DNA from: Thermoanaerobaculia bacterium
Lineage (GTDB): Bacteria; Acidobacteriota; Thermoanaerobaculia; Gp7-AA8
Length of the DNA stretch: 64,000 bases
Assembly: GCA_044866315.1 (NCBI GenBank)
Contig: JBIOTX010000044.1
Span: 10,596-74,595 of the forward strand
Reading direction: 5' to 3'
Shown: in pieces, positions 15,874 through 60,396 of the stretch
How the letters are laid out: each line of letters opens with the position of its first letter
How positions within the stretch are numbered: position 1 is the stretch's first letter
Made by a program: the position numbers and the translations under genes
The notes under the pieces: generated by a model
The model's input: only the letters and a program-made list of their open reading frames with translations
Told to the model about the DNA's origin: nothing
Database searches by the model: none

Positions 15874-15955
15874 TCCCTCGTTTTGACGGTGGCCGCGCCG
15901 AAGGAGAGAGGTCCGCTTCGTCTTAGCAACGCATCACCGCGCCACGGCACGCGCG

Positions 15956-16795: not shown

Positions 16796-16801
16796 GGGTC
16801 A

Positions 16802-24297: not shown

Positions 24298-24333
24298 GCC
24301 AGTTGACGTTTTTGGGTAGAACCGTCAACTCGC
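24298..24333. promoter_or_regulatory. Second copy of the palindrome GCCAGTTGACG-N14-CGTCAACTCGC; about 215 bp upstream of the ECF sigma gene and overlapping the stop of the integrase remnant
   Basis: Same GAGTTGACG/CGTCAACTC core and 14-nt spacer as the site at 14004..14039. Confidence 0.4.
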
Positions 24334-31215: not shown

Positions 31216-32585
31216 GCCGCGGCATCGGAGGTTTCGTTCTCGACCGGGATCTCGGCGCTTGCGACCGGCTCAACACCGTAGCGTAAGTAGAGCGTCGCGA
31301 GCCGCGCCACGTCTTCCGGCCCGAGCGTGAAGATGCCTGTTGATCGTGAGGGCTTGAGACCGAGCCTGCGCCTCACGAGCGACCCAATCCAGCGGGGTGT
31401 CACACGCCGTTCGTACTGATCCCCGTAACGCGCGAGGAAGAGCCGCGTGATGTCCTGGATCGCCAGGCGCGCGTCCGGGCCCTTGGCGACGAGGTCGCGA
31501 ATCACCTGGAGGACCTGCGCCTCGGCGGCCTCCGAGCGCTCCTCCACGAGGTCTTCGTTCAGCTTCGATATGAGCGCTATGACCTTCTCCCGCTCGGACG
31601 CATCGCTGATCACCGAGCAAAGAGGCCCGAAAATTTGTTGCAGCCTCGGCTCGAGATCGCGACCGCCCGCGCGGACTTCCGCCCGCGCGTCCTTGAAGTG
31701 CCTCAGGCGGTAGAGGAGGAGCTGGTTCCGGATCTCCCGGGCCTCCTCGTGGAAGCGCTCGTCGAGATTGAGCGGGATCCCGCTCTGTATTTGCCCGCCT
31801 CGCATGTCCTCCGTGACGCAGCGGCTCTCCAGCGCCCGATCCTGGAAGAAGCCGCGCGTCGCGACGATCTTCGGGCCGAAGACATGGTAGGCCCGCGGGT
31901 TGAACTCCTTCTTCGAGGAGACTTCCGTGCGCAGGACGGGGAAGCCCCTGGCGTTCCCGTTATTCAAGATTTTCACGATCTCGCTTTTCTCGTCCGAGTA
32001 TCGGAAGTCTCCCTCGTCGAGGATCAAGGTTCCGTGAAAGCTGTCCAAGAGCCGGAAGATCGGTGAGACGGTCGAGGCGGCGCTGGCGAATATCGGGAGG
32101 CGGCAAAGGGAACCCACGGTTAGCAAGAACCGTGTTTTACCGCTCCCGTATCCACCGCGAACTCGGACATAGGGGACTTCGTGGAAGGCGTCGTAGACCC
32201 AGGAGAAAAGCACGTAGTAGGTAGCGATCAATTCGAATTCTTCCGAGACCTCCACGTGCCTTCGCACGAAGTCCCGGACGCGGGAGACAAGCGCGGACTC
32301 GTCACCGTACTCGGCCGGCTCGGACGGAAAGAGCACCACGCCGTGCTTCACAAGATTGTTGGTCGGCGAGTACGGCACGAGCCGCTCGGCCGGCGAGACA
32401 GTGATGCTCTCCTCGTACCCCCAGGCGTCGGCTATACCGCAGACGAACTGCGTCTTGCGTTCGGCAGGCTCGTAGACCATGTCTACCAGCTCACCGGTTG
32501 GAAGGACAGCCGACGCGGTCGGTATGACGGTAGGCTTCTTCTCCTGCTCGTGCTTTGGAGCGTCAGGAGGTGCCATAGAGTTCAT
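31212..32585 (-). CDS. P-loop NTPase, primase-associated helicase-like (DUF3987/D5-like, tentative)
   Basis: Walker A VRGGYGSGKTRFLL, Walker B LILDEGDF. It lies immediately downstream of the primase gene, with an overlap. Confidence 0.5.
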   Translation of the reverse strand: MNSMAPPDAPKHEQEKKPTVIPTASAVLPTGELVDMVYEPAERKTQFVCGIADAWGYEESITVSPAERLVPYSPTNNLVKHGVVLFPSEPAEYGDESALVSRVRDFVRRHVEVSEEFELIATYYVLFSWVYDAFHEVPYVRVRGGYGSGKTRFLLTVGSLCRLPIFASAASTVSPIFRLLDSFHGTLILDEGDFRYSDEKSEIVKILNNGNARGFPVLRTEVSSKKEFNPRAYHVFGPKIVATRGFFQDRALESRCVTEDMRGGQIQSGIPLNLDERFHEEAREIRNQLLLYRLRHFKDARAEVRAGGRDLEPRLQQIFGPLCSVISDASEREKVIALISKLNEDLVEERSEAAEAQVLQVIRDLVAKGPDARLAIQDITRLFLARYGDQYERRVTPRWIGSLVRRRLGLKPSRSTGIFTLGPEDVARLATLYLRYGVEPVASAEIPVENETSDAAA

Positions 32586-33537
32586 GGGTGAACTGAAAGC
32601 GCTCCAAAGCTTCGAGTGCTTGACCCCAGGTCATCGACTCTTTGTCCATCAGGAACCTCACCACGTCACCCTCCGCGCCGCAAATGCTGCACTGGTAGGT
32701 ATCCGTCTTCGGAAAGACGATGAAGGACGGTGACGGATCGTTGTGGAACGGACAGTGTCCGACCAGGCTCGTGCCAGACGCCTGGAGATCGACGTAATTT
32801 GCTACGACATCATGGAGCCGGACGGCCCGCCTCGCCCGTTCGGCGCGGCGCCTCGCTGAATTGTGTAGCGACCGGAACGCACGGATTTTCGGCGGCTGGT
32901 TTGCACGTGTGCCGCCCGCCGCGCCTTCCGCAGCGGCGAGCAACACCTCGAAATCAATCCTCGTGCGTCCAAGTCCCACGAAAAAGTCCGTGACGCTGCC
33001 ATTCTCTCCCACCTCAGCCGGCAGCATGACGATGCGAGTGCGTGGAAAGAGGCTCTGGACCTTCTTGGCGGCTGCAGCTCCTGCGAGGTCCCGGTCGAAG
33101 CAGAGGTAGACTTGCTTTATTGGCGCGAAGTACGGCAGCCATTCTTCGAGGAATGTTGATGCGCCGCCAGTCGACGTCACGGCGGGAAAGCCGTTTGCCT
33201 CAAGCACGAGCCTGTCGAATTCCCCATCGCAGATCACGACTCGCTGCGGACTGCGCATGAGTGTTTCCCAGCCGTAGAGTTCTGTGCCGGAGCGGAAGTC
33301 CTCGAGCATCGCCGGACTGTCGCTTGTATCGTCAGGCACCTTGGCGTACTGGAACCCGAGCACCTCACGCTCGCGCCCGAAGATGGGAATGGTGATTCGC
33401 TGGCCGCTCCAGCCGAGTAGCTGTCGCTCGATCACGGTCGCCGGTATGCCTCGGTCTTTCAGATACGTCCGGATCTCGTCCGGGAGCGCGCGGTGGTACC
33501 GCTCGGCGATTTCTCGCCGGATGTTTGGATGAAGCAT
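32563..33537 (-). CDS. DnaG-like primase with permuted domain order: N-terminal Toprim, C-terminal CHC2 zinc finger
   Basis: Toprim segments VVICDGEFDRLVLEANGF...TSTGGAS and YLCFDRDLAG. The C-terminal stretch GHCPFHNDPSPSFIVFPKTDTYQCSICGAEGDVVRFL is a canonical CHC2 finger, which in DnaG is normally N-terminal. Confidence 0.7.
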   Translation of the reverse strand: MLHPNIRREIAERYHRALPDEIRTYLKDRGIPATVIERQLLGWSGQRITIPIFGREREVLGFQYAKVPDDTSDSPAMLEDFRSGTELYGWETLMRSPQRVVICDGEFDRLVLEANGFPAVTSTGGASTFLEEWLPYFAPIKQVYLCFDRDLAGAAAAKKVQSLFPRTRIVMLPAEVGENGSVTDFFVGLGRTRIDFEVLLAAAEGAAGGTRANQPPKIRAFRSLHNSARRRAERARRAVRLHDVVANYVDLQASGTSLVGHCPFHNDPSPSFIVFPKTDTYQCSICGAEGDVVRFLMDKESMTWGQALEALERFQFTHELYGTS

Positions 33538-33644: not shown

Positions 33645-33890
33645 ATGGCTGAGTCATTCGACACTGACGTGCGTAAGACCATTGCCCGCTGCTTTCCGCA
33701 ACTGACGCAGGAGGAGCTTTCCACCGCGGTTGAGACGTTTCTCGGCTACATCGACATCGTCAACGACGTAGACGACGCGCTACAAGCCGATCCGAAGCGG
33801 TTCGCCGCATTGACAGCGAACGTCCACCGGGCTACGGTCGAAGCGGGCCAGGTCGAGCCCACAAACCAACAGTTTCCTCTCCATGCATAA
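33645..33890 (+). CDS. Small ORF (81 aa) overlapping the serine recombinase start; possible accessory or directionality factor
   Basis: MAESFDTDVRKTIARCFPQLTQEELSTAVETFLGYIDIV... has a non-repetitive composition and an 8-nt overlap with the recombinase gene. There is no motif support. Confidence 0.25.
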   Translation: MAESFDTDVRKTIARCFPQLTQEELSTAVETFLGYIDIVNDVDDALQADPKRFAALTANVHRATVEAGQVEPTNQQFPLHA

Positions 33891-35403
33891 GGTCTTCGCC
33901 TACGTGCGCGTCTCGACGACGCGTCAAGGCGAGAAGGGCGTCTCGCTTGCCGAGCAGGCCGACGGGATCCGCCGGTTTGCCGTCCGCCAGAATCTGGAAA
34001 TCGTCCGCTGGTTCGAGGAGCAGCAGACCGCAGCGAAGCGTGGGCGACCCATGTTTTCCGAGATGGTTCGGTTGCTTCGGCGCGGCTACGCGCACGGCGT
34101 TGTCATCCATAAAATCGACAGAAGCGCCCGGAATCTTCGCGATTGGGCCGATCTCGGGGAACTGATCGACGCCGGCGTGAAAGTCTATTTCGCAAACGAA
34201 AATCTCGATCTCGCGTCGAGGGGCGGTCGGCTGACGGCCGATATCCAAGCGGTCGTTGCCGCGGATTTCATCCGCAACAATCGCGAGGAGGTCAGGAAGG
34301 GTCTCACCGGTCGCTTGAAACAAGGGCTTTGGCCGTTTGCCGCGCCGCTCGGCTACCTCGACCGCGGCAAGGCCAAAGAAAAGACGATCGATCCGAAGAA
34401 CGCGCCGCTCGTGCGCGAAGCGTTCGAGCTGTTCGCCACCGGACACTACACGATCGAGACGCTCCTCGACGAGATGACTCACCGAGGCCTTCGTAACCGC
34501 AACGGCCGGCCGCTTTCCAAGGACGGCATGTGGATCATGCTCCGGAATTCCTTCTACATCGGCATCATGCGCATCCGTCGCACGGGCGAGCGTTTCCCTG
34601 GTGTGCATGCGCCACTTCTACCTGTCTCCGTTTTCGAACGCGTCCAGGCGGTACTCGACGGTCGCAGTTTCACGCATGTTGAGAAGCACCACTTTCTCTT
34701 CCGGCGGCTCTTTACCTGCGCCGCCTGCGGGCGCTCGCTTACCGGATCGCTGCAGAAGGGCCGCGTGTACTATCGCTGCCACACGAAGGCATGCGCTGGC
34801 GCGTCAGTTCGGGAGGATGTCATCGACCAGCGTGTCCGGGCGATCCTGCGGCGCATGACGTTCGCCCAGGAACTCCGTGCACTTCTCCACGTCGGCCTTC
34901 GTCACCGCAAGGAGGCTAGCCGCGAAGCCGTGCGAGCCCGTCGTCATTCTCTCGAAGCGGAACTCGCACGCGCCGAGGCCCGCCTTGCCAGGCTGACCGA
35001 CGCCTTCCTCGACGGCATAATCGATCGAGATCTCTTCGACTCTCGAAAGGCGGCTCTCCTGCTTGAGCGAGCCCAAGTCAACGAAAGAATCGAGGAACAC
35101 GCGTCCGATGGGAGTACTTTCAGGCAGAACGCCGAACAAAAGTTGCAACTCGCCGAGTCTGCGATTTTCCTATACGAAATCGCCTCTCCTGACGAAAAGC
35201 GCCGTTTGCTGAACAGAATCAGTTGCAACCGGGTGGCAGCCGGTAAGAACGTAGATATATCGCTGCTTCCGCCGTTCGCCGACATTGCCGATGTGCTCGA
35301 TTTTCGGAAATGTGCACATTACCAGGATGAGGTTGCAACCGCCGAGGCAATCCTGGCGGTCCTCCTCCCGCCTGACTCACCGCAACATCCACTACGTCCT
35401 TGA
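33883..35403 (+). CDS. Large serine recombinase (resolvase catalytic domain, recombinase domain and zinc ribbon)
   Basis: YVRVSTTRQ (catalytic Ser); recombinase domain; Zn ribbon CAACGRSL...YYRCHTKAC; C-terminal coiled coil. Confidence 0.85.
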   Translation: MHKVFAYVRVSTTRQGEKGVSLAEQADGIRRFAVRQNLEIVRWFEEQQTAAKRGRPMFSEMVRLLRRGYAHGVVIHKIDRSARNLRDWADLGELIDAGVKVYFANENLDLASRGGRLTADIQAVVAADFIRNNREEVRKGLTGRLKQGLWPFAAPLGYLDRGKAKEKTIDPKNAPLVREAFELFATGHYTIETLLDEMTHRGLRNRNGRPLSKDGMWIMLRNSFYIGIMRIRRTGERFPGVHAPLLPVSVFERVQAVLDGRSFTHVEKHHFLFRRLFTCAACGRSLTGSLQKGRVYYRCHTKACAGASVREDVIDQRVRAILRRMTFAQELRALLHVGLRHRKEASREAVRARRHSLEAELARAEARLARLTDAFLDGIIDRDLFDSRKAALLLERAQVNERIEEHASDGSTFRQNAEQKLQLAESAIFLYEIASPDEKRRLLNRISCNRVAAGKNVDISLLPPFADIADVLDFRKCAHYQDEVATAEAILAVLLPPDSPQHPLRP

Positions 35404-35730: not shown

Positions 35731-38700
35731 ATGATGAAGCGTCTCGCCGGTAGCCGGATGGTCGTTTTGCTGCTCGCTTGTCACGTCATCTGCGGCGAGC
35801 TGCAAGCCAGTGCGCTAGATGATGCATTTCGCGCTGAACAGCTGCTTCGACAGCTGCAACAGATCCATGGCTCGGGCGACCACTGCGGAGCAGCCTGTTC
35901 GTCGCAGCCGCTACAGGAGGCGCTCGCCCTGCGCCTCTCCGCGTGTCTCCGCTCACGGCGCAAGGTCTATCAAGAACGCGACGTCCGCTCGGCCGGTCTT
36001 CGTCCCTGCCTCATGTACGCTGGCGATTCGATCGTCGCGCCCGGGCAGGCGGTGGCGCTTCTCGGCAATGTCATCGAGCCGTTCTTCATCCTCGAGTCGA
36101 ATCGGGCCGCCGTGTCGTTTCTCGAGAGAGGACGCCGCGAGCTGATCGCCCGGGCGGCACACGACGCGGAGACGGTGGCCGAGGCGGTGGCAGTCGCGGC
36201 GGTGTTTCAGTCCGCGCCTACCGCGGTACTCGACCTCCTCGGCTTCTCCGCTCTTCGCGAACCGCTCGCCGCGGTCGGTGACGCAAAGACCCCTCTAGCA
36301 CAGCGGGTGGACGCGGCGGTGCGGATCGTGGCCGCGACTGAGGCCGTCATGGGGAAGCAGGTGACTTCGCCCGCGCTCGATCGCTGGCACCGGTTCCGGA
36401 AGGAGGGCCTCGCCATTGGGCGCTGTTCGCCTCAAGCCATTTGTGCCGTGTTCCGCCCCGAGGCGGGGAATCCGGGGGAGTCGACGGCGGTGTCGGCGTT
36501 CGCAGTCGGCCCGGCGGTGGAGCTCCCGCTCGGCCTCACAATCCGGAACACCCGCTTCGTCGACGACGCGAATGGCGGACATCTCGTGTTTCCGCCGTCT
36601 GGACTCGTGGCGAACGTCCGGGAAGACGCCGGACAACTGCGCCGGTCGCTCGCATTAATGGGTATTCCGCCTCTCCTCGCGGACCGCGCCACGTTCTCGG
36701 GCTTGGCTGCCGGCCCGCAGGCGCTGTCGATCGCTGTCCACCTCTTCGTGGCGGGCAGAACGGGCGCCGTTCACGGCGAGTTGCCTCTCCAATCGCTGAT
36801 CCGCTCAGCGAACGAGCGGGGCCTCTCGTCAGCCGGACAGGCTTTCGCCGAGCGCTTTCAGGCGCGCATCGCCGAGGCGCTCAACTCGGCCGGATTCCAG
36901 TGGACGCTCCGCGGCGTGCCGCTGAAGGCGACGTTCACCGCAAAAGCGATTGGGAACGGACGCATTCATCTCGCCGGACGATGGTCTGCCGGCGAGCTCG
37001 GCGAGGTCGAGTTCCCGGTCGACCTCGTCCCGGGAGTGGACGGAGCGCTGCAGGTGATGCCCGGCGACCACCTCGTTCCCCCTGCCGCGGTCGAGAAGTG
37101 GATCGCCTCCGTACGCCGGCCACTGGTGACCGCGCTTCAGGCGGCGGTGCCACCCGAGATGCGGCCGCGCCACTCCGGAATGCTCGTCATCCAGCGGGCG
37201 AAGGCTGTCGTAAACGCGCTGACCGTCGACTCCGTCACCTTCGACGAAGCCCTCGCTGTCTACACTGCACACATCTCGGTCGCGCTTCCGGCGCCCTACG
37301 GCGGGACCCTAACTGTTACCTTCGGGCCGTCGCAGCCACTGCCCGATGTCGGCGCACGTGTCCGCGACGCTCTCCAGCGCGCCCTCCTCGCGGAGCTGGC
37401 CGCCAGCGCGGTGGCGAGCGCGATTACCGCGCCCGCTGATCTTGCCGGCAGGAGCTTCGAATTCCTCGGCGGGAGGATCGAGATCCTCTCCGATCCTCCG
37501 CCCCGCTTCGAGGACGGTGCGTGGTCGGCATCAGTGCGAACAACATTCGGTGCGGTCAGCCGAACACTGCTGCGCCTGCGCATCGCTCCCTCTGCCATCG
37601 GCTCACCGGCTATCTCGCCCGCCGACCTCGACTTCGCCGCGGTCCAGGTGACGGGAGGCACGTTCATCGATCTAGTGGCCGACATTCTTGCAGCGCGAGG
37701 GCTGGCCCTGCAGAGCGCCAAATCGCTGATCTCCATCCGGGACGTGCGGCCGATACGCCGTGGGCTTGCCTTCCGGCTGGTGCTGCGGAACCTGCCGATA
37801 CTCCCGAACGGAATCGACCTGGGCGACTTCGAACTCGGTGAGCGCACCACGGCCAACATCGCCGAGCGCATCGGCGCACCGATCCAGAATGCGCTGCTGG
37901 GACTGGGTGAAATTGAGCAGGTGGGACCGGTCCGCAACATCGCTCTCGACACCCAGCGGACGAACCTGCTCCTCGCTTCCCGGTCCCGGCAGATCGTACT
38001 GAAGGCAGAGGTGATCTTCGATGCACCGATCAGCGGCACGCTGAAGGTGCGGATCACGATTCCCGAGAGCGGGCCGCTGGTGGTCGAGCCCGAGCAGCGC
38101 CTCGAGACGTGGCTCGCCGGCGTCCTGCCCGCCCTCGTGCCGGTGCTATCGGTCGATCACGTGCTCTCCGTCAAGCTCTCGCGAGTCTCGGAGACGTTCA
38201 TCGCGATGTCGCCGCTCCGCTTCGACGCCGACATCGACGTCACGCTCTTCGACTCCGTCCCTCTGCCGACGGCGCGCATCGTGATCTCCCCATCCGGCAT
38301 GGATTTCAGTCAGTTCAAGCCATCGATCGACTATCCGGCCGCCTTCATCGTGGCGCCCGCTGCTCCGCTCTCCCTATACGCGGTGAACAGCACCCTCGCC
38401 GTCGACCTGACGCGAGGCGCGCTTACAGTGAGCACTGAGCTGACGTGCGCAGCCACGCCGGCAGAGGCGAAGCTCGTTGCCCTCGCCGCGCACATTAAGG
38501 GCAGTCTCACGGTCGAGGTCCGCGAGGCGACCGCGAAATTGCGCGGAGACGTGAAGCTCGCGAGAAGCATGACCATCATGACGGTCACCGGAACGCTGGA
38601 CATTCCGCATGCCCACTTCGAGGGAACTCAGCAGACCGGCGATTTCCTTCGGTCGATCGCCGACGTCGGGAGCACAGTGGTCATTGACGCGCCGACGGCG

Positions 38701-40764
38701 ACGATGAGCGGCGGCACGCACTTCAAGGCTCTCGGCCTGAACATGCAGGCGACCCTCACGATCGTCCTCCGGCCACCGCCCGTCATCGCGCTGCGAGGCA
38801 TGGCGAGCATTCTCGGCGCCGAGGTGGCGGTTGACGTGTCCGCAGGAGTGGCTCCCCCGACCCTTAGTGCCTCGGCGAACCTCCAGCTTCCGACCGTCCT
38901 CGGCATTGATCTCGGCGGCGGCCATCTCGACATTAAACCCTCGTTCGTTCGCCTGAGGTTCCATGCTCTCGGCGCGAACGTCACGGTCCTCGTTCCGAAT
39001 CTCTCCCGGCTCGATATCGCACTGCTCGAGGAAATCGTCCGCAGTCGCCTGCAGCATCCCGAGCTGAACCTCTCGGACATCATCGACGCGCTGCGGGACC
39101 GGAACATTACGGTGTCGCTCGTTGAGAGCGGCAGTGGAGAAAACGAAGACATTTACACGCAGCGCACCGGCGGCAGCGACGGCGGAGGCGAAGAGAGTCC
39201 CGGCCTGGAGCACGGCGGCAACCCGTCGCCGACCGTCGGGCCGAACCGCGGCCCCCGGGAAGCAACCGGCGGCGGTGAGGACAAGAGCGAGAGCTCGGCG
39301 GCGAGCCGATCCGGCGGTCAGGGAGACGTGCAGACGACGCAGGCTAACGGCTGGTTCTACCGCGTTCGGCAGAATGGCACGGCGTGGATATTGGTCTCCG
39401 TCTTCGGGGACCATGAGTCGGCACCGCGCCTCCTCAGTGAGGAGACGCGCGCCCATCTTGTCAGCCCCAACGTTGTAACGCTCTTCGACACTTGGTTGTT
39501 CATTGTGACGGCGGACATCGAAGCTGGCACGCTGCACGCCATCTGGTTCGAGCCGCCGCGAAACTCTCCTATCGAGCACTTCCCGCTCGCGGAGAAGGTT
39601 GATCTCTTCGAGTGGCTGGACGGCTGCCGAAAATCGAAGAACTGCGACATCAACGCGCGGCTCGGGTATCTCCCGTTTCTCGCTGACTACGAGCACCACA
39701 TCGAGGTACGAGAGACCGCGCTGCTGCCGCAAGACCCCGAACAGTCGCAGCCGCGCGGCTTCGTCATCGCCTGGAGTGGCGAGGGATCGAAAGCCGAATG
39801 CCGCGGCATCGCGCTTTGGCCCGAGTATCCGAAACGCGACGAAAAGAACCTCGCCCGGTCCGTTCCGTTCGTGCCTACCGACCTGCAGGATGCCCGCTGT
39901 GCGCCCCCGTCACCGGGAGCGGCTTTCCCTCCCCTAGGCGCCGCACCTCCCGACTGGTTCCGGTACCGGCCGGTCAGGATCGTTTCGGCGCAAGGCAACG
40001 TCGTGGAGAGCCTCAGCGGCGATGCCGCCCGGCGCAATCGAGTCCTGCGCCTCCTATCGAAGGACTTGCGGGCGACCGAGGTCCGCGAATACGGCACCAG
40101 AGTGCTCGCGGTGACCGATCTGCAGCCGATCGAGCCGCCGGGCCGAGCGCGGCGAGGCGGCCCGGAACCTTCGCAAGGTCCACCACCGCAAGGTGCGCCG
40201 CCGCAGACGGTCCTTCCGCTGCCGGCATCACTCGCGCCGCCGCCGGGGTTCGCCCCGGCTCCGGTACGATTCGCGAAGACGGTCAGCCTTATCGGACCGT
40301 CCGCCGCAGTGCAAGTTCCGGTGATTTTCGCCCACGACGCGGGAGGCGGACAGGCGACAGGCCTAGCTCTGCCCGAATGCGTCGCCCGCTCGGCGCCGAT
40401 GGCGGCCGAACTGGCCGGGCTGCTCGACAAGGCCGACGAGCATGCAGTGGCGCTGCTCCTGGAAACGCCGCAGACCTGCAGCGCATCGCTGATCACCCTC
40501 GACCCGAAAACCAGCGCCTGGATGGCCGCTGGCATCACCCGACTGCCTGACGACCGGACGAAAGCGTATCGGATCGACGGGGCGCGCTTCACGAAGCTGT
40601 TCAACCAGTGGGCGGCCGACGGGCTCTATCACGGCGCGCGCCCACCGGAAGGGGCAATGTGGGTCCCCACTGTCCTGCGCCAAGTGTTGACCCCCGGACA
40701 CGACTGGCCGAAAACCTTCCGTGCAAATCCGCTGGGCCTCATCGGGCTAAGTGCAATGCAGTGA
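35731..40764 (+). CDS. Giant secreted/anchored protein (1677 aa) of unknown function
   Basis: N-terminal signal/anchor MMKRLAGSRMVVLLLACHVICGELQA, with SD gggggagg upstream. About 1100 aa are Ala/Leu/Gly/Val-rich. A Gly/Ser/Glu-rich disordered linker (SGSGENEDIYTQRTGGSDGGGEESPG...) follows. A Pro-rich segment (PPGRARRGGPEPSQGPPPQGAPPQTVLPLPASLAPPPGFAPAP) precedes a ~165-aa C-terminal domain. Confidence 0.7.
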   Translation: MMKRLAGSRMVVLLLACHVICGELQASALDDAFRAEQLLRQLQQIHGSGDHCGAACSSQPLQEALALRLSACLRSRRKVYQERDVRSAGLRPCLMYAGDSIVAPGQAVALLGNVIEPFFILESNRAAVSFLERGRRELIARAAHDAETVAEAVAVAAVFQSAPTAVLDLLGFSALREPLAAVGDAKTPLAQRVDAAVRIVAATEAVMGKQVTSPALDRWHRFRKEGLAIGRCSPQAICAVFRPEAGNPGESTAVSAFAVGPAVELPLGLTIRNTRFVDDANGGHLVFPPSGLVANVREDAGQLRRSLALMGIPPLLADRATFSGLAAGPQALSIAVHLFVAGRTGAVHGELPLQSLIRSANERGLSSAGQAFAERFQARIAEALNSAGFQWTLRGVPLKATFTAKAIGNGRIHLAGRWSAGELGEVEFPVDLVPGVDGALQVMPGDHLVPPAAVEKWIASVRRPLVTALQAAVPPEMRPRHSGMLVIQRAKAVVNALTVDSVTFDEALAVYTAHISVALPAPYGGTLTVTFGPSQPLPDVGARVRDALQRALLAELAASAVASAITAPADLAGRSFEFLGGRIEILSDPPPRFEDGAWSASVRTTFGAVSRTLLRLRIAPSAIGSPAISPADLDFAAVQVTGGTFIDLVADILAARGLALQSAKSLISIRDVRPIRRGLAFRLVLRNLPILPNGIDLGDFELGERTTANIAERIGAPIQNALLGLGEIEQVGPVRNIALDTQRTNLLLASRSRQIVLKAEVIFDAPISGTLKVRITIPESGPLVVEPEQRLETWLAGVLPALVPVLSVDHVLSVKLSRVSETFIAMSPLRFDADIDVTLFDSVPLPTARIVISPSGMDFSQFKPSIDYPAAFIVAPAAPLSLYAVNSTLAVDLTRGALTVSTELTCAATPAEAKLVALAAHIKGSLTVEVREATAKLRGDVKLARSMTIMTVTGTLDIPHAHFEGTQQTGDFLRSIADVGSTVVIDAPTATMSGGTHFKALGLNMQATLTIVLRPPPVIALRGMASILGAEVAVDVSAGVAPPTLSASANLQLPTVLGIDLGGGHLDIKPSFVRLRFHALGANVTVLVPNLSRLDIALLEEIVRSRLQHPELNLSDIIDALRDRNITVSLVESGSGENEDIYTQRTGGSDGGGEESPGLEHGGNPSPTVGPNRGPREATGGGEDKSESSAASRSGGQGDVQTTQANGWFYRVRQNGTAWILVSVFGDHESAPRLLSEETRAHLVSPNVVTLFDTWLFIVTADIEAGTLHAIWFEPPRNSPIEHFPLAEKVDLFEWLDGCRKSKNCDINARLGYLPFLADYEHHIEVRETALLPQDPEQSQPRGFVIAWSGEGSKAECRGIALWPEYPKRDEKNLARSVPFVPTDLQDARCAPPSPGAAFPPLGAAPPDWFRYRPVRIVSAQGNVVESLSGDAARRNRVLRLLSKDLRATEVREYGTRVLAVTDLQPIEPPGRARRGGPEPSQGPPPQGAPPQTVLPLPASLAPPPGFAPAPVRFAKTVSLIGPSAAVQVPVIFAHDAGGGQATGLALPECVARSAPMAAELAGLLDKADEHAVALLLETPQTCSASLITLDPKTSAWMAAGITRLPDDRTKAYRIDGARFTKLFNQWAADGLYHGARPPEGAMWVPTVLRQVLTPGHDWPKTFRANPLGLIGLSAMQ

Positions 40765-40781
40765 GAAAGAGGAGAGCGTTC

Positions 40782-42320
40782 ATGGCAAAATCTGGTCCGG
40801 TCCATCCGTTTCACATGTCCATCGGCGCGGTGTTCCTATCGTTCCTCGTCGCGCTGGGGATCACGGCGGTCTCCTACGCCGTCGGTACGCTGTGGATCGT
40901 TCACAACCTCGAGCGGAGGTATCTCGAGGACCGCACGATCGTGCCGGAGCTTCGGGGACGCGATACTCCCAATGCGCCGGTGTCGGCGCAGCTGAACGAA
41001 GAGAGCGTCTGGGCGGCGATGCTCAACCGGCTTCGAGAGGACGGGAACATTGCCACGATGAGCGACGAGCAGGTCAAGCAGCTCGTCGCGACGCTTGCGC
41101 ACGGAGCGCGGCCGGAGCCGGTCGATTCCCTCTCACCCCTCTCCCTCGCCGTGACCATCGCCCAGATCTCCGGCAACACGCGCGACACTGAGACGCCGCC
41201 GCCGGGAAAGCGCCTGCAGTACGAGCCGATCATGGCGCTCCTCATGGCGGGCGTTCCGGGCCAACTCCAAGCTATCGAGGACTGCGTGGGAAGCCTGCGG
41301 CAAGGCGCCGCTGCCAAAACCTCCGTGGGCGCCAATGAGCGCTGCAACGGTGCCCGAAGCTCGCCCCTCGCCAGACTGTGGTCGGGCGTGCGGATGCAGG
41401 GGCTGAATTGGACTCCGCGGCGCGAGATCGCCAAGGCGGCCTTCGAGCTGACCGGAGCGTGGTCGGATCCGCCGACGCAGCAGATGACAAAGGACGTCCG
41501 CCGCAATGCCTTCTTCCTCACCGAGGCGCTCCTGCAGCGGAGCGACACAGCGACGGCCGTGAAGCACGCGCGGATCTACTTCAACATCTTCGTCGGGCCG
41601 ATTCAGTTCGCCCTCTATTTCTTCTTCGTCTTCCTTCTCGTTCTCCTCGTCGTCCGGGCTGGCACCCGGTACGACCTCGAAGGGATCTGGAGAGGGAAGA
41701 TCCGGCGAGAGATCGTGAGGGAGCGCAAGGAAGAGGATCCGGAGCTTCTCGCCACGAAGCTTCGTAATCTCGCCAAGGCCAGCCACCGGACGTTCTTCGA
41801 GCAGTCGCTGCAGACGGTGGCGCACGAGCTGGAGGCGATCAGGGACCAGGCGCGGAATCTCACCGACCGCAACGATCCGGCGCTCATTCACGCAAGGATC
41901 AGCAACACGGCGAATCAGCTTGCGGAGGCGGCCATCGCCCACATGTGCACACTCTTCGCGAACCTCACCGACAACTCACGCTGGTTGATCCGCTGGCTGG
42001 CCCGATCCCTTCCCGCACTCGGCTTCCTGCACACGGTGCTCGGCATCGCCTTCGCGCTCGTCAAGGCTGACCTGCTGGTCCGGGCCAACTCGCCCGCTGC
42101 GCGCGCCACAGCGATGCTGGAGGTCTCCAGCGTGCTGGGCGTCGCTTTCACGACGACCTTCCTTGCCCTCTTCGCCGGGCTGATCGCGGGACTGATCATC
42201 GACTGGGAGTTCTCCCGCGAAGACCTCTTTCTGGACGACTATGAGAACGTCCTCACCGTGAACATTAATCCGATGTACTTCGCCCCGGAGCGTCAGAAAG
42301 AGGAGCCGCATGTTGCGTAG
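40782..42320 (+). CDS. ExbB/TolQ/MotA-family proton-channel protein with N-terminal TM plus ~230-aa periplasmic extension
   Basis: C-terminal signature LPALGFLHTVLGIAFAL...ATAMLEVSSVLGVAFTTTFLALFAGLIAGLI matches the MotA_ExbB TM2-TM3 consensus (LGLLGTVxGM...ALxTTxxGLxVAIP). Four TM helices. ATG 40782 is preceded by gaggagag, 17 nt after the giant-protein stop. Confidence 0.65.
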   Translation: MAKSGPVHPFHMSIGAVFLSFLVALGITAVSYAVGTLWIVHNLERRYLEDRTIVPELRGRDTPNAPVSAQLNEESVWAAMLNRLREDGNIATMSDEQVKQLVATLAHGARPEPVDSLSPLSLAVTIAQISGNTRDTETPPPGKRLQYEPIMALLMAGVPGQLQAIEDCVGSLRQGAAAKTSVGANERCNGARSSPLARLWSGVRMQGLNWTPRREIAKAAFELTGAWSDPPTQQMTKDVRRNAFFLTEALLQRSDTATAVKHARIYFNIFVGPIQFALYFFFVFLLVLLVVRAGTRYDLEGIWRGKIRREIVRERKEEDPELLATKLRNLAKASHRTFFEQSLQTVAHELEAIRDQARNLTDRNDPALIHARISNTANQLAEAAIAHMCTLFANLTDNSRWLIRWLARSLPALGFLHTVLGIAFALVKADLLVRANSPAARATAMLEVSSVLGVAFTTTFLALFAGLIAGLIIDWEFSREDLFLDDYENVLTVNINPMYFAPERQKEEPHVA

Positions 42321-42807
42321 GCGACGGCCTGATCAGCCCGCCATTACGCTGAGCTTCATCGACATGGTCAGCGGCGGCATGGCCGCGTCGCTTCTGCTCT
42401 TCCTCTCCGTCGCGGCTGTTAGCGGCTCGGCCGGCGGTATCGGTCCGACCCGAGCACACGGTCGAGGGGATGACGCCCGGGCCAGCAGCGGCCGGGCCTA
42501 CGCCCGCTTGGCGGTCATCGAGATGAAGGTGCGCGGCGAGGTCGCGCCAGGAGACCTCTCTGTCCGGCCGGCCGAAGGCGTGGAGGCTTTCCGGACGCCC
42601 GGCAGCGAGGGAACCACCATGCTCACAGTCGTCGTCACGGCGCAGGAGCCGGTGACCATCTATCTCCGCAACGGGGTGACGGTAGAAGGGATCGAGACGC
42701 GGACGTGCGGCGCGGAAGGCTGCGGGCGGCCGATACCACGCACGCTGTTGGCCACCGACGCCGGCCAGGCGGTAATGACGTTCGATCCGCTGGAGGTGCA
42801 GCCATGA
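42310..42807 (+). CDS. ExbD/TolR/MotB-like stator subunit, paralog 1
   Basis: MLRRRRPDQPAITLSFIDMVSGGMAASLLLFLSVAA is the conserved N-terminal TM with the Asp (FIDMV) of the ExbD/TolR family. 11-nt overlap with the ExbB-like gene. Confidence 0.65.
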   Translation: MLRRRRPDQPAITLSFIDMVSGGMAASLLLFLSVAAVSGSAGGIGPTRAHGRGDDARASSGRAYARLAVIEMKVRGEVAPGDLSVRPAEGVEAFRTPGSEGTTMLTVVVTAQEPVTIYLRNGVTVEGIETRTCGAEGCGRPIPRTLLATDAGQAVMTFDPLEVQP

Positions 42808-43424
42808 TGCGACGCCGCGCGAAGCAGGAGGCGTCGGAAGAGATCCTGACCCTCAGTTTCATCGACACGCTCTGCTGCTGCCTCGGCGCGACCGTCCTGC
42901 TCTTCGTTGCGCTGGTCAGCAACTCCCAGAATCAGGGCGGAGCCGTGCAGCGCATCCGGGGAGAGTTCCTGCGCATCACCTATACGGCCGGCGACCCAGA
43001 CGCCATCCTGCACTTCATCATCCAGCCGCCGTCCGGACGGCAGATCGAGCTCTCGCCCGCGGAGATGAACGGCACGGGCTACTTCCGGGAGAGTACGCCC
43101 TACTGGCGCGCCCTGCGCGTAGTCGGCTTTTCCGCCGCCACCCGCCCGCTCGCGGCGGGCGTGGCCCACCGCTACGAGATCCTCGTCTTTGATCCGGCAG
43201 TCGGGAAATGGCAGTTCTCGGCGCGCTACACCGACCGCCGCGACGTCGAGCTGCTCCTAGGCCGCGCTCCGCTCGTCGATGTCGAGCGACGGGCCTCCGC
43301 CAGCTTCCCCATACGCACACGACTGGTCAGCCAAAAACTTGCGTTCAGCGAGGCGACCTGCAGCGGCACCCCCTGCGATACCTTGGAGGTCCCGCCCGAT
43401 CCTTCGCTGCTCGCGGCAAAATGA
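42805..43424 (+). CDS. ExbD/TolR/MotB-like stator subunit, paralog 2
   Basis: MMRRRAKQEASEEILTLSFIDTLCCCLGATVLLFVALVS. ATGA overlap with paralog 1. The periplasmic C-terminal domain differs from paralog 1. Confidence 0.65.
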
Positions 43425-43448
43425 AACTGAGAAAGAGAGGAACTCACC

Positions 43449-43949
43449 ATGAACCGCATCGCCTGCATTGTGGTCGCCGCAATCGTCGTCGCCGTTGCGG
43501 CCGACTTTTCCGCGGCACCGAGGACGTTCACCCTCACCGTTCAGCGCAACATGACGTGCAAGGACGGCTCAACGAACGGGCGTCTGCTGGTGGGAGGCAA
43601 CGAGATCGCCCGCACCCTCGAGCCGGCACTTCCCGGCAACCGCATTCCGGCCGGCAGCTACCAAGGAGTCATCCGTACCGATGGCGATCTCGGCTGGCGG
43701 GTGGAGCTGAAGGACGTGAAGGGATGGGAGGCCGTCCAGATCCACAAGGGTAATTACCCGAGTAACACGAAGGGATGCATTCTCGTCGGCACCGGAATCA
43801 CGGGAGCGACCGATCCGAAGACCGGCCAGGAGACCTGCATGGTCACCAACTCCGCCGACGCGCTGGCGAAGATTCAAGCAGCCATGCAGAAGGCGAGTGA
43901 TAGCGGTGTCTCAAGCCAGGGGCTAGCCATCACAATTACAGTCGAGTAA
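43449..43949 (+). CDS. N-terminally anchored/secreted DUF5675-like protein (tentative)
   Basis: Signal/anchor MNRIACIVVAAIVVAVAADF. Motif NRIPAGSYQGVIRT...VQIHKGNYPSNTKGCILVGTG resembles the DUF5675 pattern (RIPAGTY...IHgGN...T.GCIlVG). It is the last gene of the operon. Confidence 0.45.
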   Translation: MNRIACIVVAAIVVAVAADFSAAPRTFTLTVQRNMTCKDGSTNGRLLVGGNEIARTLEPALPGNRIPAGSYQGVIRTDGDLGWRVELKDVKGWEAVQIHKGNYPSNTKGCILVGTGITGATDPKTGQETCMVTNSADALAKIQAAMQKASDSGVSSQGLAITITVE

Positions 43950-44290: not shown

Positions 44291-45619
44291 CTAGGGCGGT
44301 GGAGCAGGCGGGGTAGACCATGCACAAGCATTCGGGCATCCCGACAGAGTCCACTCATAAAACCCAATCACTTTGCTGGTGTCATAAGCACGTCCACCCA
44401 GTGAGCTAAAGATATTCTCATAGTACGTGCCGTTCACCGTCGCGCCGCCGAGGCCCATGGCTTGCGGCCACGTTTCTCTCAAGCCCCAATCGTAACTGCT
44501 GTTACACGAAGCCCGGGCTGTAGAGGGATACGTTCCGCAGGTATAGGGTGCGCCGGTACCGGGATCACGTGGATAGGTGTCGGGAACCAAAACCGTATCC
44601 AGACCTGTGCCTTCGATATGGCCGAAGTATTGAAGGGGACTCGACTGCGGAACCCCAACGAACGTCTGCAACCCTCCTCCTAGTGCTTGTCCACCAGCGC
44701 AATGACCGGAGCCGAACGAGCAAATGTACGGGCGTACGAAATATCGCTGTCCTCTCAATAACGTGATTGCGCTGGCACCGCTGAACTTGAATTCCTGTCG
44801 CACCATGCCCGCTCCGTACGGCGGTGGAATGCCGATCCCGTACGTTGGGTCGGATGTAGCCAGTAATGCGTCTGCAGGGCAGCCTCCGTAGTACCCACCG
44901 TCGACCGCGCAGATTACGTAATATGCCGGCCCACCACAGGACCCGTTCGCACACATGAACAGCTCTGACGTAACGCTTGCCAGCTTGCCTGAAACGTTCG
45001 GAACCAGTACTAGCCAGTTGTACACGTAGTAGTTTCCGCTCCACCCACCGGCATTAAAAGTTGCAAGTGTTACGGGTGTAGTATCGACGCATGGATGACG
45101 AAGGTCCGCTGCATCGCCACGCATCTCATTGACGTGGAACGTAGTGACATTTGGCACCCAGTGTTCGCATCCCTCACCGCAGTATTTCGCGCCAATGAGA
45201 GAGATTGTTGTATAACCTTTGTTCAAGTAGCCGCGCCGAATCCCCCGAGTTACAGTTTCTATGCCCGCGCTCCAGTTTGAAAACGGCGACAGCCCGCATC
45301 GGACGCTGACCGGATCGCTTCCACCACAATCACCGGTGGATGCGCACCAGAACCAATTCCATGCGTTGTACTCGCCGCAAAGATGCTTGCCGAACCCCGT
45401 CTCCTGCCCCGAAATCCCTACGATGAGGCGGGGATCGACGTCAAACTCTCTGCCCGATTCGAGCAGCGTTGTGACGGTGTCACTCGTGTCGATCATAGGC
45501 GACGACTTACGCTCCAGGTAACTCTGCAGCTGCTCAGCCGAGACGCATGTCGCCGCAAACGCCTCCAACGACGCATTCACTAGGTGGACAAGCAGAAGAA
45601 GGCGTACGCTTCGAAGCAC
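44291..45619 (-). CDS. Secreted Cys-rich protein with N-terminal glucosaminidase (GH73)-like region (tentative peptidoglycan hydrolase)
   Basis: Signal peptide LLLLVHLVNASLEAFAA. The segment LIVGISGQETGFGKH...YNAWNWFW resembles the FlgJ/GH73 motif. More than 20 Cys are present; the C-terminal region is Gly/Tyr/Cys-rich. Confidence 0.4.
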   Translation of the reverse strand: MLRSVRLLLLVHLVNASLEAFAATCVSAEQLQSYLERKSSPMIDTSDTVTTLLESGREFDVDPRLIVGISGQETGFGKHLCGEYNAWNWFWCASTGDCGGSDPVSVRCGLSPFSNWSAGIETVTRGIRRGYLNKGYTTISLIGAKYCGEGCEHWVPNVTTFHVNEMRGDAADLRHPCVDTTPVTLATFNAGGWSGNYYVYNWLVLVPNVSGKLASVTSELFMCANGSCGGPAYYVICAVDGGYYGGCPADALLATSDPTYGIGIPPPYGAGMVRQEFKFSGASAITLLRGQRYFVRPYICSFGSGHCAGGQALGGGLQTFVGVPQSSPLQYFGHIEGTGLDTVLVPDTYPRDPGTGAPYTCGTYPSTARASCNSSYDWGLRETWPQAMGLGGATVNGTYYENIFSSLGGRAYDTSKVIGFYEWTLSGCPNACAWSTPPAPPP

Positions 45620-45630
45620 TTAGCACATCC

Positions 45631-46470
45631 TCATTCGCTGAAGCGCGCAGTCGAGAGCACTTTCTCGAATGTCGCTATGTGGTCCGACGCGGCCGGATCG
45701 CCTTCGGAGTATGTCAGGAAGAACTTGTAGATCCATCCGCCGTGCGGAACATAGACGACAGTTGTGACTTCCGCTGCCGTGTTAGTGGCGTCGACGTACG
45801 TCAGTCGACGTCCTGCTCTCGCAGCCACTGCGACATTCGTGGCGCTCACCGGCTCTGTGTCGCTGAAATCGTGCTCGATGACATCTTCCAAGGATTCTCC
45901 ATCGTGCGTCCGAGTGATGTCGATTTCAGCGCCACCGAAAGGGCGGACGCCTCCCCGCGAATACTCCGCGAAGGACCTCAGTGCGACTGGACCTCCCAAA
46001 TCGGCGACTGCGCTATTAAATCGCCACTCGGGAGGATAGCCCACGGCGACGCCTGCCGCCGGGGTTGTGAGGGCTCGCCAGATACTTAATCGAATCGGGA
46101 ATGGCCTCGACACAGTCGCACTCCGGTCCCGAAGATGCAGCGTTCCTTCAACCACTCCTGGGTCAGTATTCTCTGAGACAGCGACCATAATCGTGATCTG
46201 GAACGAAGATCCTGCTGCACTACTTACGACCTGTGGCGTGACGGTGATATATGGCCTGAGTGCTGGAGTAACCTCGGCCCGCACGGCCTCAAGGGGACGC
46301 GTTGACGTCCCACTTATGCTGAGCGTGTGTGTTCCGCCTGTAGCCACCGTCATATCGCTTCGCCCGGGAGACCACGTCACTACCGGGGGTGCGGAGGATG
46401 CTACGAAGGCCAAACCTGCGACCCCCACTGTCACCACCACGAACGTCAAACGGCGAGCTTTTGACATCAT
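45631..46470 (-). CDS. Secreted hypothetical protein
   Basis: Likely start MMSKARRLTFVVVTVGVAGLAFVASSAPP (signal peptide); the track ORF extends to 46677. Composition is beta-rich (TVTPQVVSSAAGSSFQITIMVAV). Confidence 0.5.
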   Translation of the reverse strand: MMSKARRLTFVVVTVGVAGLAFVASSAPPVVTWSPGRSDMTVATGGTHTLSISGTSTRPLEAVRAEVTPALRPYITVTPQVVSSAAGSSFQITIMVAVSENTDPGVVEGTLHLRDRSATVSRPFPIRLSIWRALTTPAAGVAVGYPPEWRFNSAVADLGGPVALRSFAEYSRGGVRPFGGAEIDITRTHDGESLEDVIEHDFSDTEPVSATNVAVAARAGRRLTYVDATNTAAEVTTVVYVPHGGWIYKFFLTYSEGDPAASDHIATFEKVLSTARFSE

Positions 46471-46715
46471 GGATGAATTATACCGCGTTGCGTTATCAGT
46501 AGTTGCGTTGCCGCCACTGCCCCGGTTAAGCCGACCGGCCCATGTATCATGACGACGCTCACGAATGTCTGTGCGTGTGATCACCGCGCGGCCCCTGTTT
46601 CTCGCAACGGGAAATCCTCGAAGCATATCGACATTCCTCTTTTCCGATCCGTAGCAAGGCGTCATCCCCAATCTCACTGATGTCCGACTCTGCGGAGCCC
46701 GAGTTGTCCAACAGG

Positions 46716-47609
46716 TTACAGTGTCGTCGAGGTCCTCTTGCTTTTACGACGGCGCGCCCTCATATCTTCGGCAATCGGCAACTTTGCATCAGCATCGAGA
46801 ATGAGCTCCGTATCAGTATTTACGATCTTCATGCCGTGCGTAGCCGGTACGAAAACCTCAAAATCTCGATCCATGAACAGCACGCGTTCCCGGCCTTCCA
46901 TCCTGATAACCAGGCGTTTCGGTCTCGTTGGCGACGCCGTGGACTTCGCACGCGAAAACGATAGCTCACCATACGGTGTCTGCACCGAGTCGCTTACACT
47001 GACAAAAAACTCGCCTTTGTGATTCAGCCCGAAAGTCGCCGGCGAGCCCACCGGCTGAAAAGAGATCGCGAACGACTGGGCTAGTAATTCTTTCGGTGGA
47101 GACTGACGCCTTACCACCGCCTGCTCAAATGCCGCGAACTGCGAACAGGTATTGCTCGCGATCTGTGCCAACTCCGCTGCACGCTGGTCACCCGTAAGCT
47201 TCGATTGCGTATCGCCAAGTGCCTGTTGCGCCGCAAGAGTGTCGAGTAACGACTGATGCAATTCCGCGAGGTCGGCCGGGGGCAAAAGGTCCGTCATGCG
47301 TTTCTGCGTATCTCGCCAATACTGATCACCGTTCTCCGATGGCGCGGGGAGTGACACGCTCCGCGTGCCGTACAGCGGGACATTTCTCATTCCACCCGGG
47401 CAGTTCTCACCGTAGCCGCATCGGACATTCGCGTAGCTCACGACAACTCGCTCAGGAGGCTTAACTGAGCACGCCGCCGTGACCACCGGCATGACTTCGC
47501 CATACCACCCTGCCTCCTCTGCCGTCATCCGTTGTTGGACCTGTTGCTGAACACAGGAGAATGCCAGGAGGGATAGTGCGAATGCTGGTTTGAATCCGAT
47601 GGTCTTCAT
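46716..47609 (-). CDS. Putative lipoprotein
   Basis: Lipobox-like MKTIGFKPAFALSLLAFSC. It is the first gene of a three-gene minus-strand cluster of exported proteins. Confidence 0.5.
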   Translation of the reverse strand: MKTIGFKPAFALSLLAFSCVQQQVQQRMTAEEAGWYGEVMPVVTAACSVKPPERVVVSYANVRCGYGENCPGGMRNVPLYGTRSVSLPAPSENGDQYWRDTQKRMTDLLPPADLAELHQSLLDTLAAQQALGDTQSKLTGDQRAAELAQIASNTCSQFAAFEQAVVRRQSPPKELLAQSFAISFQPVGSPATFGLNHKGEFFVSVSDSVQTPYGELSFSRAKSTASPTRPKRLVIRMEGRERVLFMDRDFEVFVPATHGMKIVNTDTELILDADAKLPIAEDMRARRRKSKRTSTTL

Positions 47610-60280: not shown

Positions 60281-60396
60281 CGCAGGAGGTCGCCGACGAT
60301 CTGCGATCGGCTCTTGCCCAGATCGAAGACGTCCTGGGGGACCTGGAGCAACGAGCGGTCGCGACCGCCTCTTCGGAGTGACAGCGGGCACCGTGC

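Follow-up and report, generated by a model that had tools for sequence, protein, structure and literature searches.

Ion-driven motors of the MotA/ExbB kind power, to our knowledge, only a few known processes: flagella, Ton import, Tol-Pal division, gliding together with type 9 secretion, and Zorya defence. The literature on 5:2 motors describes 'generic' Exb/Tol-like motors that carry diverse and at times very large periplasmic extensions, and it expects more systems to be found (PMC12204202 among others). Among the motors with non-TonB periplasmic partners are those encoded beside vWA-type 'new force transducers' as tolQR-like genes, including in Planctomycetes (Mol Biol Evol 2025, PMC12204202). 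Here we analysed a stretch of 64,000 nucleotides (nt) from a Thermoanaerobaculia bacterium (contig JBIOTX010000044.1 of assembly GCA_044866315.1; the window), in which five genes at 35731–43949, g1 to g5, encode a giant predicted exported protein, a long ExbB/TolQ-type channel subunit, two partner subunits and a predicted exported DUF5675 protein. On balance, we think that this operon encodes an envelope machine that has not been described before, is horizontally mobile and has a divergent proton-driven motor of the ExbB/TolQ type at its base. We regard as new the set of partners with which an ion-driven motor is here joined to an envelope effector, because the combination is absent from the literature that we found on 5:2 motors and periplasmic force transducers, as the initial annotation of this DNA had supposed, and because PADLOC, Pfam and NCBIfam hold no model for g1, g3 or g4.

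The closest described systems differ from this operon in their parts. Ton and Tol-Pal are housekeeping systems with one partner subunit, whereas the module here is accessory and mobile and includes a wall enzyme. Its channel subunit is twice the usual size, with an extra transmembrane (TM) helix and a predicted periplasmic domain of about 225 residues, and its two different partners lack sequence homology to ExbD and TolR. Neither TonB nor TolA is present, and a soluble protein of 1600–2300 amino acids (aa), predicted to be Sec-exported and lacking a membrane anchor, is the candidate transducer. In Zorya, the extension of ZorA is a long cytoplasmic C-terminal tail that signals to ZorC, ZorD and ZorE, and ZorB has a peptidoglycan-binding domain. 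The extension of g2 is instead N-terminal and predicted to be periplasmic, the operon partners are all predicted to be extracytoplasmic, and no Zorya partner is present. The AglRQS gliding motor of Myxococcus and the ExbB-ExbD1-ExbD2 systems resemble the operon in having one A-type and two different B-type subunits. AglQ and AglS can be recognised as homologues of TolR/ExbD, which g3 and g4 cannot, and the Glt partners are not present here; the resemblance to AglRQS proposed in the initial annotation holds for the number of subunits and for nothing beyond it. In SiiAB–SiiE of Salmonella pathogenicity island 4 (SPI-4), a MotAB-like channel pair is likewise encoded with a giant exported protein and controls it (bioRxiv 10.1101/641415, PMC6272769). 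However, SiiE is a repetitive Ig-domain adhesin secreted through SiiCDF, a type 1 system, and a MotB-like domain of SiiA binds the wall, whereas our operon has no type 1 system, no repeats, a predicted Sec signal peptide and different partners. Finally, the vWA transducers are TM-anchored and use a TM helix bearing a conserved His to bind their motor (PMC12204202), whereas the giants encoded here have no TM anchor.

A five-gene unit and its conservation

The operon consists of five open reading frames (ORFs) on the plus strand: g1 (35731..40764, 1677 aa, without a Pfam domain), g2 (40782..42320, 512 aa), g3 (42310..42807, 165 aa), g4 (42804..43424, 206 aa) and g5 (43449..43949, 166 aa). We read the junctions directly. 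The g1 start is preceded by AGGGGGAGG; g1 and g2 are separated by a 17-nt gap containing GAGGAG; the last 11 nt of g2 are shared with g3, whose start also has GAGGAG upstream; g3 is joined to g4 through an ATGA overlap, before which GGAGG occurs; and the 24-nt gap between g4 and g5 contains AGAGAGGA. Each of these gaps and overlaps, including the Shine–Dalgarno sequence of the first, is as initially annotated, and the claim that the five genes form one unit is supported by their exact coordinates and junctions and by the recurrence of the gene set in other loci. Because all five genes have orthologues in two further independent contigs (58% and 38% identity for g2, 41% and 26% for g1), we consider them to be real rather than chance ORFs. 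In the curated family libraries (Pfam, NCBIfam and PADLOC), g5 alone among g1–g5 scored above a threshold. A scan of the operon for promoters and terminators gave nothing beyond shuffled expectation, and Rfam and tRNA scans of the window returned no match.

We then compared the operon with related loci. A first scan with three close g2 orthologues found no relative among 185,579 GTDB species representatives; a scan of one genome per GTDB species with the family alignment yielded 24 loci, and a metagenome scan added five new ones. ORFs were called in these loci and searched with profiles from the window proteins. In 13 independent loci, from Planctomycetota, Alphaproteobacteria, Holophagales and metagenomes, the order giant gene, long channel gene, first partner, second partner is kept wherever the sequence allows, and at least three phyla share the module. 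In L001/L002, a giant of 1673 aa is followed by proteins of 512, 171, 191 and 218 aa; in L003, a DUF5675 protein of 179 aa has moved upstream of a giant of 1616 aa, which is followed by proteins of 480, 180 and 195 aa. More distant loci (group A) comprise a Phycisphaerales chromosome (L007), Mesorhizobium sp. ISC25 (L008), Siccirubricoccus soli KC 17139 (L009), metagenome-assembled genomes of Holophagales (L010) and Rhizobiaceae (L012) and the metagenomic contigs L033–L037, all with long channels of 527–812 aa.

A giant gene homologous to g1 (1616–2276 aa) lies directly upstream of the channel gene in all ten loci that are long enough, which include the window, L002 and L003 and span Phycisphaerales, Mesorhizobium, Rhizobiaceae, Siccirubricoccus, Holophagales and metagenomes. 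Co-conservation of the giant had been set beforehand as one point on which the unit could fall, and since the giant accompanies the channel genes in every locus extending far enough, the outcome favours the unit. In Mesorhizobium sp. ISC25 (NZ_CP135441.1, L008 713–8543), an IS66-family transposase (E = 4e-89) splits the giant gene into parts of 748 and 983 aa, so this copy is probably inactive. A second set of loci (group B, L013–L030), mostly from Gemmataceae and other Planctomycetota, has short channels of 250–310 aa and no giant gene. Group B is a distinct system from group A and may be the vWA-type transducer system of PMC12204202; its gene cluster encodes a channel of about 290 aa, which belongs to the clade of g2, followed by proteins of about 366, 573 and 600 aa, of which the 573-aa protein has a weak LSFxD-like TM motif.

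The surroundings of the module contain none of the partners expected of the known motors. Within 10 kb on either side in the three close, Pfam-annotated loci, we found no gene for TonB, TolA, TolB, Pal, an OmpA-like protein, type 1 secretion or a Zorya partner, in agreement with the initial annotation on TonB, TolA, Pal and Zorya partners, and a PADLOC scan also returned no Zorya partner. Genes for type 9 secretion, an outer-membrane channel or Glt-like proteins were absent from all loci with Pfam annotation. The PLSDB plasmids, GenBank phages and IMG/VR contained no relatives.

Channel, partners, giant protein and wall enzyme

Hydropathy reveals four TM segments in g2, and together with homology it suggests the following layout: TM1 at aa 13–40, a periplasmic domain at aa 41–264, TM2 at aa 265–297, cytoplasmic helices at aa 298–408, TM3 at aa 409–433 with P-A-L-G-F-L-H-T418, and TM4 at aa 445–475 with T457–T459, after which about 37 aa remain. 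The stretch of approximately 225 residues between TM1 and TM2 is predicted to be periplasmic because of the homology with ExbB/TolQ. The motifs LPALGFLHTVLGIAFAL and TTTFLALFAGLIAGL, which the initial annotation read as a MotA/TolQ/ExbB signature, are present, but g2 by itself falls under the threshold of the Pfam family MotA_ExbB (PF01618; 13.3 bits against a cut-off of 22.9, E = 0.07). All three g2 orthologues match PF01618 at E ≤ 0.1, with E = 9e-8 for the L003 protein (38% identical over 96% of g2), and the family is matched at E ≤ 0.001 by 68 of 75 g2 relatives, none of which contains another Pfam domain. In an AlphaFold model built from three sequences, confident only at aa ~265–500 (predicted local distance difference test (pLDDT) 70–87), g2 adopts the ExbB/TolQ/MotA arrangement of a TM helix, a cytoplasmic helical bundle and a TM hairpin, and ExbB and TolQ are the nearest folds. 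A PDB profile search with g2 gave nothing meaningful. Because the orthologues, the relatives and the predicted fold agree where its own score is below threshold, g2 can be placed in the MotA/TolQ/ExbB superfamily by transitivity. Its description as such a channel, enlarged by one more TM helix at the N-terminus and by a sizeable domain in the periplasm, is supported by hydropathy, the Pfam matches of its orthologues and the predicted fold.

Two threonines of g2 stand out in the predicted channel. Alignment with hhalign placed the family motif PA[IL]GF[IL]GT on residues 141–148 of Escherichia coli ExbB, with Thr418, which is invariant or nearly invariant across the g2 family, on ExbB Thr148. 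Thr459 in the last TM helix is invariant in 75 sequences and, by its position, may be equivalent to ExbB T181. PADLOC gave weak partial ZorA matches for g2 (E = 0.005), and weak ZorA matches were found in 3 of the 75 relatives. A search with g2 across 5.8 billion protein clusters recovered only two other orthologues (58% and 38% identity), and an exhaustive HMMER search of 1.84 billion representatives with a g2 profile returned 722 proteins at E ≤ 0.001, of which 155 scored E ≤ 1e-10. Among the best 150 of these relatives, 117 are at least 450 aa long (450–800 aa), with about 94 residues between the channel module and the C-terminus. The length of these relatives, their C-terminal channel and their MotA_ExbB matches place g2 in a sizeable unannotated clade of N-extended ExbB-like proteins, which comprises at least 117 clusters at 50% identity.

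The two genes after the channel gene encode small proteins that each carry an acidic residue in the membrane. In g3, a basic N-terminus is followed by an invariant L-S-F-I-D18 motif that opens a single TM helix (aa ~12–46) and by a fast-evolving periplasmic domain of about 120 aa; g4 has the same L-S-F-I-D motif at Asp21, a TM helix (aa ~14–42) and a periplasmic domain of about 160 aa that is orthologous family-wide. The membrane Asp noted in the initial annotation (FIDMV in g3, where FIDM contains Asp18, and FIDTL in g4, where FIDT contains Asp21) lies in a single TM helix of predicted N-in orientation, preceded by a basic N-terminus, in all 12 aligned g3/g4-family sequences, in which S15, D18, A26, L30 and F31 (g3 numbering) are invariant. 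A first-position partner is present in 13 of 13 loci, and two LSFxD proteins with a TM helix follow the channel gene in each of the 12 loci that reach far enough downstream; L010 and L012, for example, have two partners each.

This topology and charge placement are as in ExbD, TolR and MotB. The initial annotation went further and called g3 and g4 ExbD/TolR-type proteins, which no sequence test supports: the family libraries and a PDB profile search returned no match for either, and hhalign of the 12 g3/g4-family sequences against E. coli ExbD aligned seven residues (LSFIDMV on TPFIDVM, at ExbD Asp25) with 0.35% probability. The likeness to ExbD/TolR is therefore one of topology, membrane Asp and gene position, and we treat it as an analogy. 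Nor are g3 and g4 recent paralogues. Second-position (g4-type) periplasmic domains match one another across all loci, and first-position (g3-type) domains evolve fast and never cross-match them. Because these two separate domain lineages occur in fixed order in every locus, the comparison points to an ancient pair that forms an obligate heterodimer rather than to a recent duplication.

We also looked at the C-terminus of g4. It ends in a Lys (window 43419–43421) that has equivalents in L002, L009 and L034 (the four proteins end in AAK, TTK, TRK and SVK). A terminal Lys recalls the Lpp Lys that L,D-transpeptidases join to peptidoglycan; it is inconsistent family-wide and may be chance. Lpp-like covalent wall anchoring of g4 was rejected, as only 4 of 11 g4-type proteins have the residue.

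The giant protein g1 begins with a signal-peptide-like segment (35731..35811, plus strand like all g1 features below; aa 1–27), in which hydropathy shows a hydrophobic core of about 13 residues after a K/R-bearing N-terminus. All eight giants have such a short hydrophobic N-terminus, which resembles a signal peptide and not a TM anchor. Together with cysteines that occur in close pairs along g1, these N-termini suggest export. Two regions are kept family-wide. The first and only internal one is a core of about 230 aa directly before the linker (38488..39123, ~aa 920–1131, with matches reaching ~aa 1150–1180), which was delimited by profile and BLAST matches of distant giants and by alignment and appears beta-rich with two helices at its end. 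The second is a C-terminal module covering the last ~90 residues (40492..40761, aa 1588–1677), which ends in W-x3-F-R-A-N-P-L-G-L-I-G-L (aa 1659–1673, nt 40705–40749; family consensus W-x3-[FYW]-x2-N-P-[LR]-[GI]-[LVI]); W1597, W1659, N1666 and P1667 are invariant in eight of eight giants. Between them lies a Gly/Ser/Glu-rich low-complexity linker (39124..39342, aa 1132–1204; 37% G+S+P in a 100-aa block), found at the matching place in close orthologues. The Pro-rich stretch that the initial annotation described as a TonB-like spacer is present (40120..40266, aa 1464–1512) but aligns to a gap in both close orthologues; since it is specific to this window, it cannot be a conserved force-transmitting element.

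Distant homologues of g1 were detected in L007, L008, L009, L010, L012, L034 and L036 (E between 1e-11 and 1e-30). Pfam, NCBIfam and PADLOC assign g1 no family, and we found no internal repeats, no Ig-like adhesin domains and no TonB_C match in g1, nor a vWA match in the giants. The sole Pfam domain in any giant is a DUF3238 (E = 5e-8) at aa 136–280 of the L007 protein (L007 3129–9959). A single-sequence AlphaFold model of the core was unusable (pLDDT 36), and word-indexed homologue searches with g1 alone or with the eight-giant alignment returned only the query, probably because words from the linker swamped the index. Two candidate assignments were rejected: a TamB/AsmA-like lipid bridge, for which one weak Pfam match (E = 0.056) was not reproduced in two orthologues and four distant giants, and a lipoprotein with an LLLAC motif, whose Cys is not conserved in the orthologues.

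The last gene, g5, belongs to the DUF5675 family, as initially annotated (PF18925, E = 3e-21, 75.8 bits against a cut-off of 26.7, profile positions 2–113 of 114), and also matches phrog_1501 (3e-12). It contains the motif H99-x10-G-C110, which recurs in the corresponding proteins of L002, L003 and L008. The hydrophobic N-terminal segment taken as an anchor in the initial annotation is present, but on inspection it resembles a cleavable signal peptide just as closely. No PDB relative of g5 was found by sequence profile. DUF5675 is reported to be structurally similar to C82 peptidases, an L,D-transpeptidase family, and to be a candidate phage lysin domain (bioRxiv 10.64898/2026.04.11.717860), and g5 is a putative peptidoglycan-acting Cys/His enzyme. 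A predicted Cys/His wall-acting enzyme accompanies the core in five loci, with varying family and position: DUF5675 above the cut-off downstream of the core in the window and upstream in L003; YkuD above the cut-off upstream in Mesorhizobium L008 (E = 2.7e-7); a weak YkuD match below the cut-off downstream in L002 (E = 0.0015); and a borderline CHAP/NlpC-P60-like protein downstream in Phycisphaerales L007 (E = 1.8e-5). No wall enzyme was identified in L009, L010, L012 or L034. The exchange suggests that a required wall-modifying activity has undergone non-orthologous replacement, although the evidence for this is incomplete.

Mobile element and neighbouring genes

The copy in the window lies on an integrated mobile element, either integrative conjugative or mobilisable, and looks like its cargo. 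Upstream of the operon are genes for a tyrosine-recombinase-like protein (24325–24975), RadC (27466–28107), a TraG/TrwB-type coupling protein (29953–31215), a 457-aa protein with no assigned function (31212–32585), a DnaG-type primase (32563–33537) and a large serine recombinase (33883–35403). The G+C content of the operon (65–68%) is 5–8 points above that of the flanks (57–60%). In L003, genes for an integrase, a TrwB/DUF87 protein and a relaxase come after the module, and in L012 a related integrase lies in the flank.

Defence-type genes occur beside several copies. About 10 kb downstream of the operon, a 1654-aa P-loop protein (53698–58662, plus strand) matches the PADLOC candidate PDC-M54A over its full length (E = 0, 1334 bits). 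In L002, a ThsA/LmuA-like SIR2 protein is encoded directly upstream of the module. In Siccirubricoccus soli, the gene directly downstream (L009 13753–17136, minus strand) encodes a 1127-aa Ski2/Hel308-type helicase similar to the PDB chain 'anti-bacteriophage protein B' (8zue_B, E = 1e-25) and to HamB of Hachiman (E = 8e-13).

Other genes of the window were noted in passing. A 1264-aa gene divergent from the PDC-M54A match (49725–53519, minus strand) matches nothing in Pfam or PADLOC and is a possible partner of it. A short ORF at 60005–60427 (plus strand) starts, by eye, like the type I restriction-modification methylase HsdM (MSDLANRIVQKLWSYCNVLRDDG...); it is truncated and probably a gene remnant. 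Three genes convergent with the operon (44291–47609, minus strand; 442, 348 and 297 aa) encode proteins with hydrophobic N-termini and no Pfam or PADLOC match. Further away (9683–13781, minus strand), a cluster read by eye encodes a 678-aa fusion of a Ser/Thr kinase with a guanylate-kinase-like P-loop domain, a 435-aa protein and a 280-aa P-loop kinase-like protein; it adjoins chromosomal lysine-biosynthesis genes that look like dapF, lysA and dapD (15022–18139).

Proposed mechanism, alternatives and significance

By analogy with the solved ExbBD, TolQR, MotAB and ZorAB complexes, five copies of g2 would form an inner-membrane channel ring, and one g3 and one g4 would make up a heterodimeric 'axle' in the middle of this ring, where Asp18 and Asp21 would face Thr418 and Thr459 and take up protons. 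The accessory mass of the machine is predicted to lie entirely outside the cytoplasm, in the periplasmic domains of g2 and of the two partners, in the wall enzyme and in the giant. With all accessory parts predicted on that side of the membrane, the output of the motor would be delivered in the periplasm, onto g1. A functional link between giant and motor is suggested by the position of the giant gene in ten of ten loci and by translational coupling in the window. Movement would be handed on to the Sec-exported giant, whose likely contact with the motor is the C-terminal module (W...NPLGL), reached through the flexible Gly/Ser linker, and its N-terminal body of about 1100 aa may span the cell wall in the direction of the outer membrane. 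Peptidoglycan may be cut or re-crosslinked locally by the wall enzyme, which is DUF5675 in the window and YkuD or CHAP in other loci, letting the giant pass the sacculus or become fixed to it. Force would be transduced as by TonB/TolA, but by a soluble giant instead of a membrane-anchored rod.

The most likely biological role of such a machine is envelope-level protection against phage or other incoming DNA, although the neighbourhood evidence for it is weak. We favour this role because the module is accessory and patchy, is carried on integrative elements and several times lies beside defence genes; a surface-adhesin or gliding function ranks next and wall attack third.

Several points weigh against this interpretation of the operon. 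The 5:1:1 assembly is drawn by analogy, and the contact between g1 and the motor is a proposal. Homology of the partners g3 and g4 to ExbD, TolR or MotB could not be detected. The periplasmic domain of g2 lies outside the confident range of the AlphaFold model, and the g1 core has no PDB relative by profile search. Export and topology of the operon proteins are predicted from hydropathy and homology only. The peptidoglycan activity of DUF5675 comes from a single preprint (bioRxiv 10.64898/2026.04.11.717860), and a wall enzyme was identified in only five of the roughly nine loci with context. Defence-type neighbours were found in three of about eight loci, which could be chance and is suggestive, not statistically secure. 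The operon encodes no cytoplasmic effector and no outer-membrane component, and the only PADLOC matches of its proteins are the weak ones to ZorA.

The most probable of the alternatives is a Zorya-like anti-phage system with an abortive output. Here the motor would sense envelope damage at phage entry and activate the exported wall enzyme, perhaps also the giant, to lyse or seal the cell, with the giant acting as sensor or barrier. We regard this as unlikely, since g2 lacks the long C-terminal tail of ZorA, neither partner has the peptidoglycan-binding domain of ZorB, ZorC, ZorD and ZorE are missing, and g1, g3, g4 and g5 have no PADLOC match. Moreover, the phage and viral collections hold no homologues that would point to an arms race, and the neighbourhood statistics are too small for a conclusion.

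A surface-adhesin or gliding-type system, in which a giant adhesin is displayed, retained or moved by the motor (as in SiiAB-SiiE, GldLM-SprB of Flavobacterium or AglRQS-Glt), is less likely still. It would account for the pairing of a giant exported protein with a MotA/ExbB-type channel, and AglRQS also combines one A subunit with two different B subunits. Control of a giant adhesin by a MotAB-like pair has a precedent (bioRxiv 10.1101/641415, PMC6272769). However, no locus with Pfam annotation encodes type 1 or type 9 secretion, an outer-membrane channel or Glt-like proteins, g1 has neither the repeats nor the Ig-like domains of an adhesin, and it carries a predicted Sec signal peptide rather than a C-terminal secretion signal.

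Interbacterial or self-directed wall attack, in which the wall enzyme is a toxin that the giant and the motor deliver or activate, appears improbable. YkuD-like and CHAP/NlpC-P60 enzymes do act as antibacterial effectors elsewhere, in the Tlde1 and Tae families of type VI secretion, and the swapping of the enzyme family between loci would suit a toxin. On the other hand, no immunity-gene candidate adjoins g5, the giant has a conserved and not a polymorphic C-terminus, and no secretion system is encoded. The last alternative, an ordinary Ton/Tol-type paralogue that lies by chance beside an unrelated giant gene, fits the nearest folds of g2 (ExbB and TolQ), but it is very improbable and in effect excluded, because the giant is co-conserved in all ten loci, no TonB, TolA, TolB or Pal gene lies near the annotated close loci, the partners are not ExbD/TolR by any sequence test, and the channel belongs to a distinct clade in which it is C-terminal in a protein of 450–800 aa (117 of 150 representatives).

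Each newly recognised use of these motors has revealed another way to carry energy from the inner membrane to the envelope. The envelope machine proposed here would be unusual in three respects: its axle-type subunits are an apparently obligate pair of different proteins that cannot be recognised as homologues of ExbD, TolR or MotB; its candidate force receiver is a giant soluble exported protein and not a membrane-anchored rod; and its wall enzyme appears to be exchangeable between loci. Annotation of the module has so far amounted to a weak MotA_ExbB match. The module is present in two or more cultured strains, among them Siccirubricoccus soli KC 17139 and, in an IS-disrupted form, Mesorhizobium sp. 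ISC25, which makes it directly testable. A bolder proposal, which we hold to be possible but doubtful, is that the operon represents a new class of ion-driven 5:2 motor beside Ton, Tol, Mot, Gld and Zorya, in which an N-extended ExbB-like ring with an obligate, non-ExbD heterodimeric axle powers a giant soluble periplasmic protein and a dedicated wall-remodelling enzyme, and which spreads on mobile elements as a barrier in the envelope against phage or foreign DNA. If this were true, it would be the first defence system with its whole effector arm outside the cytoplasm.

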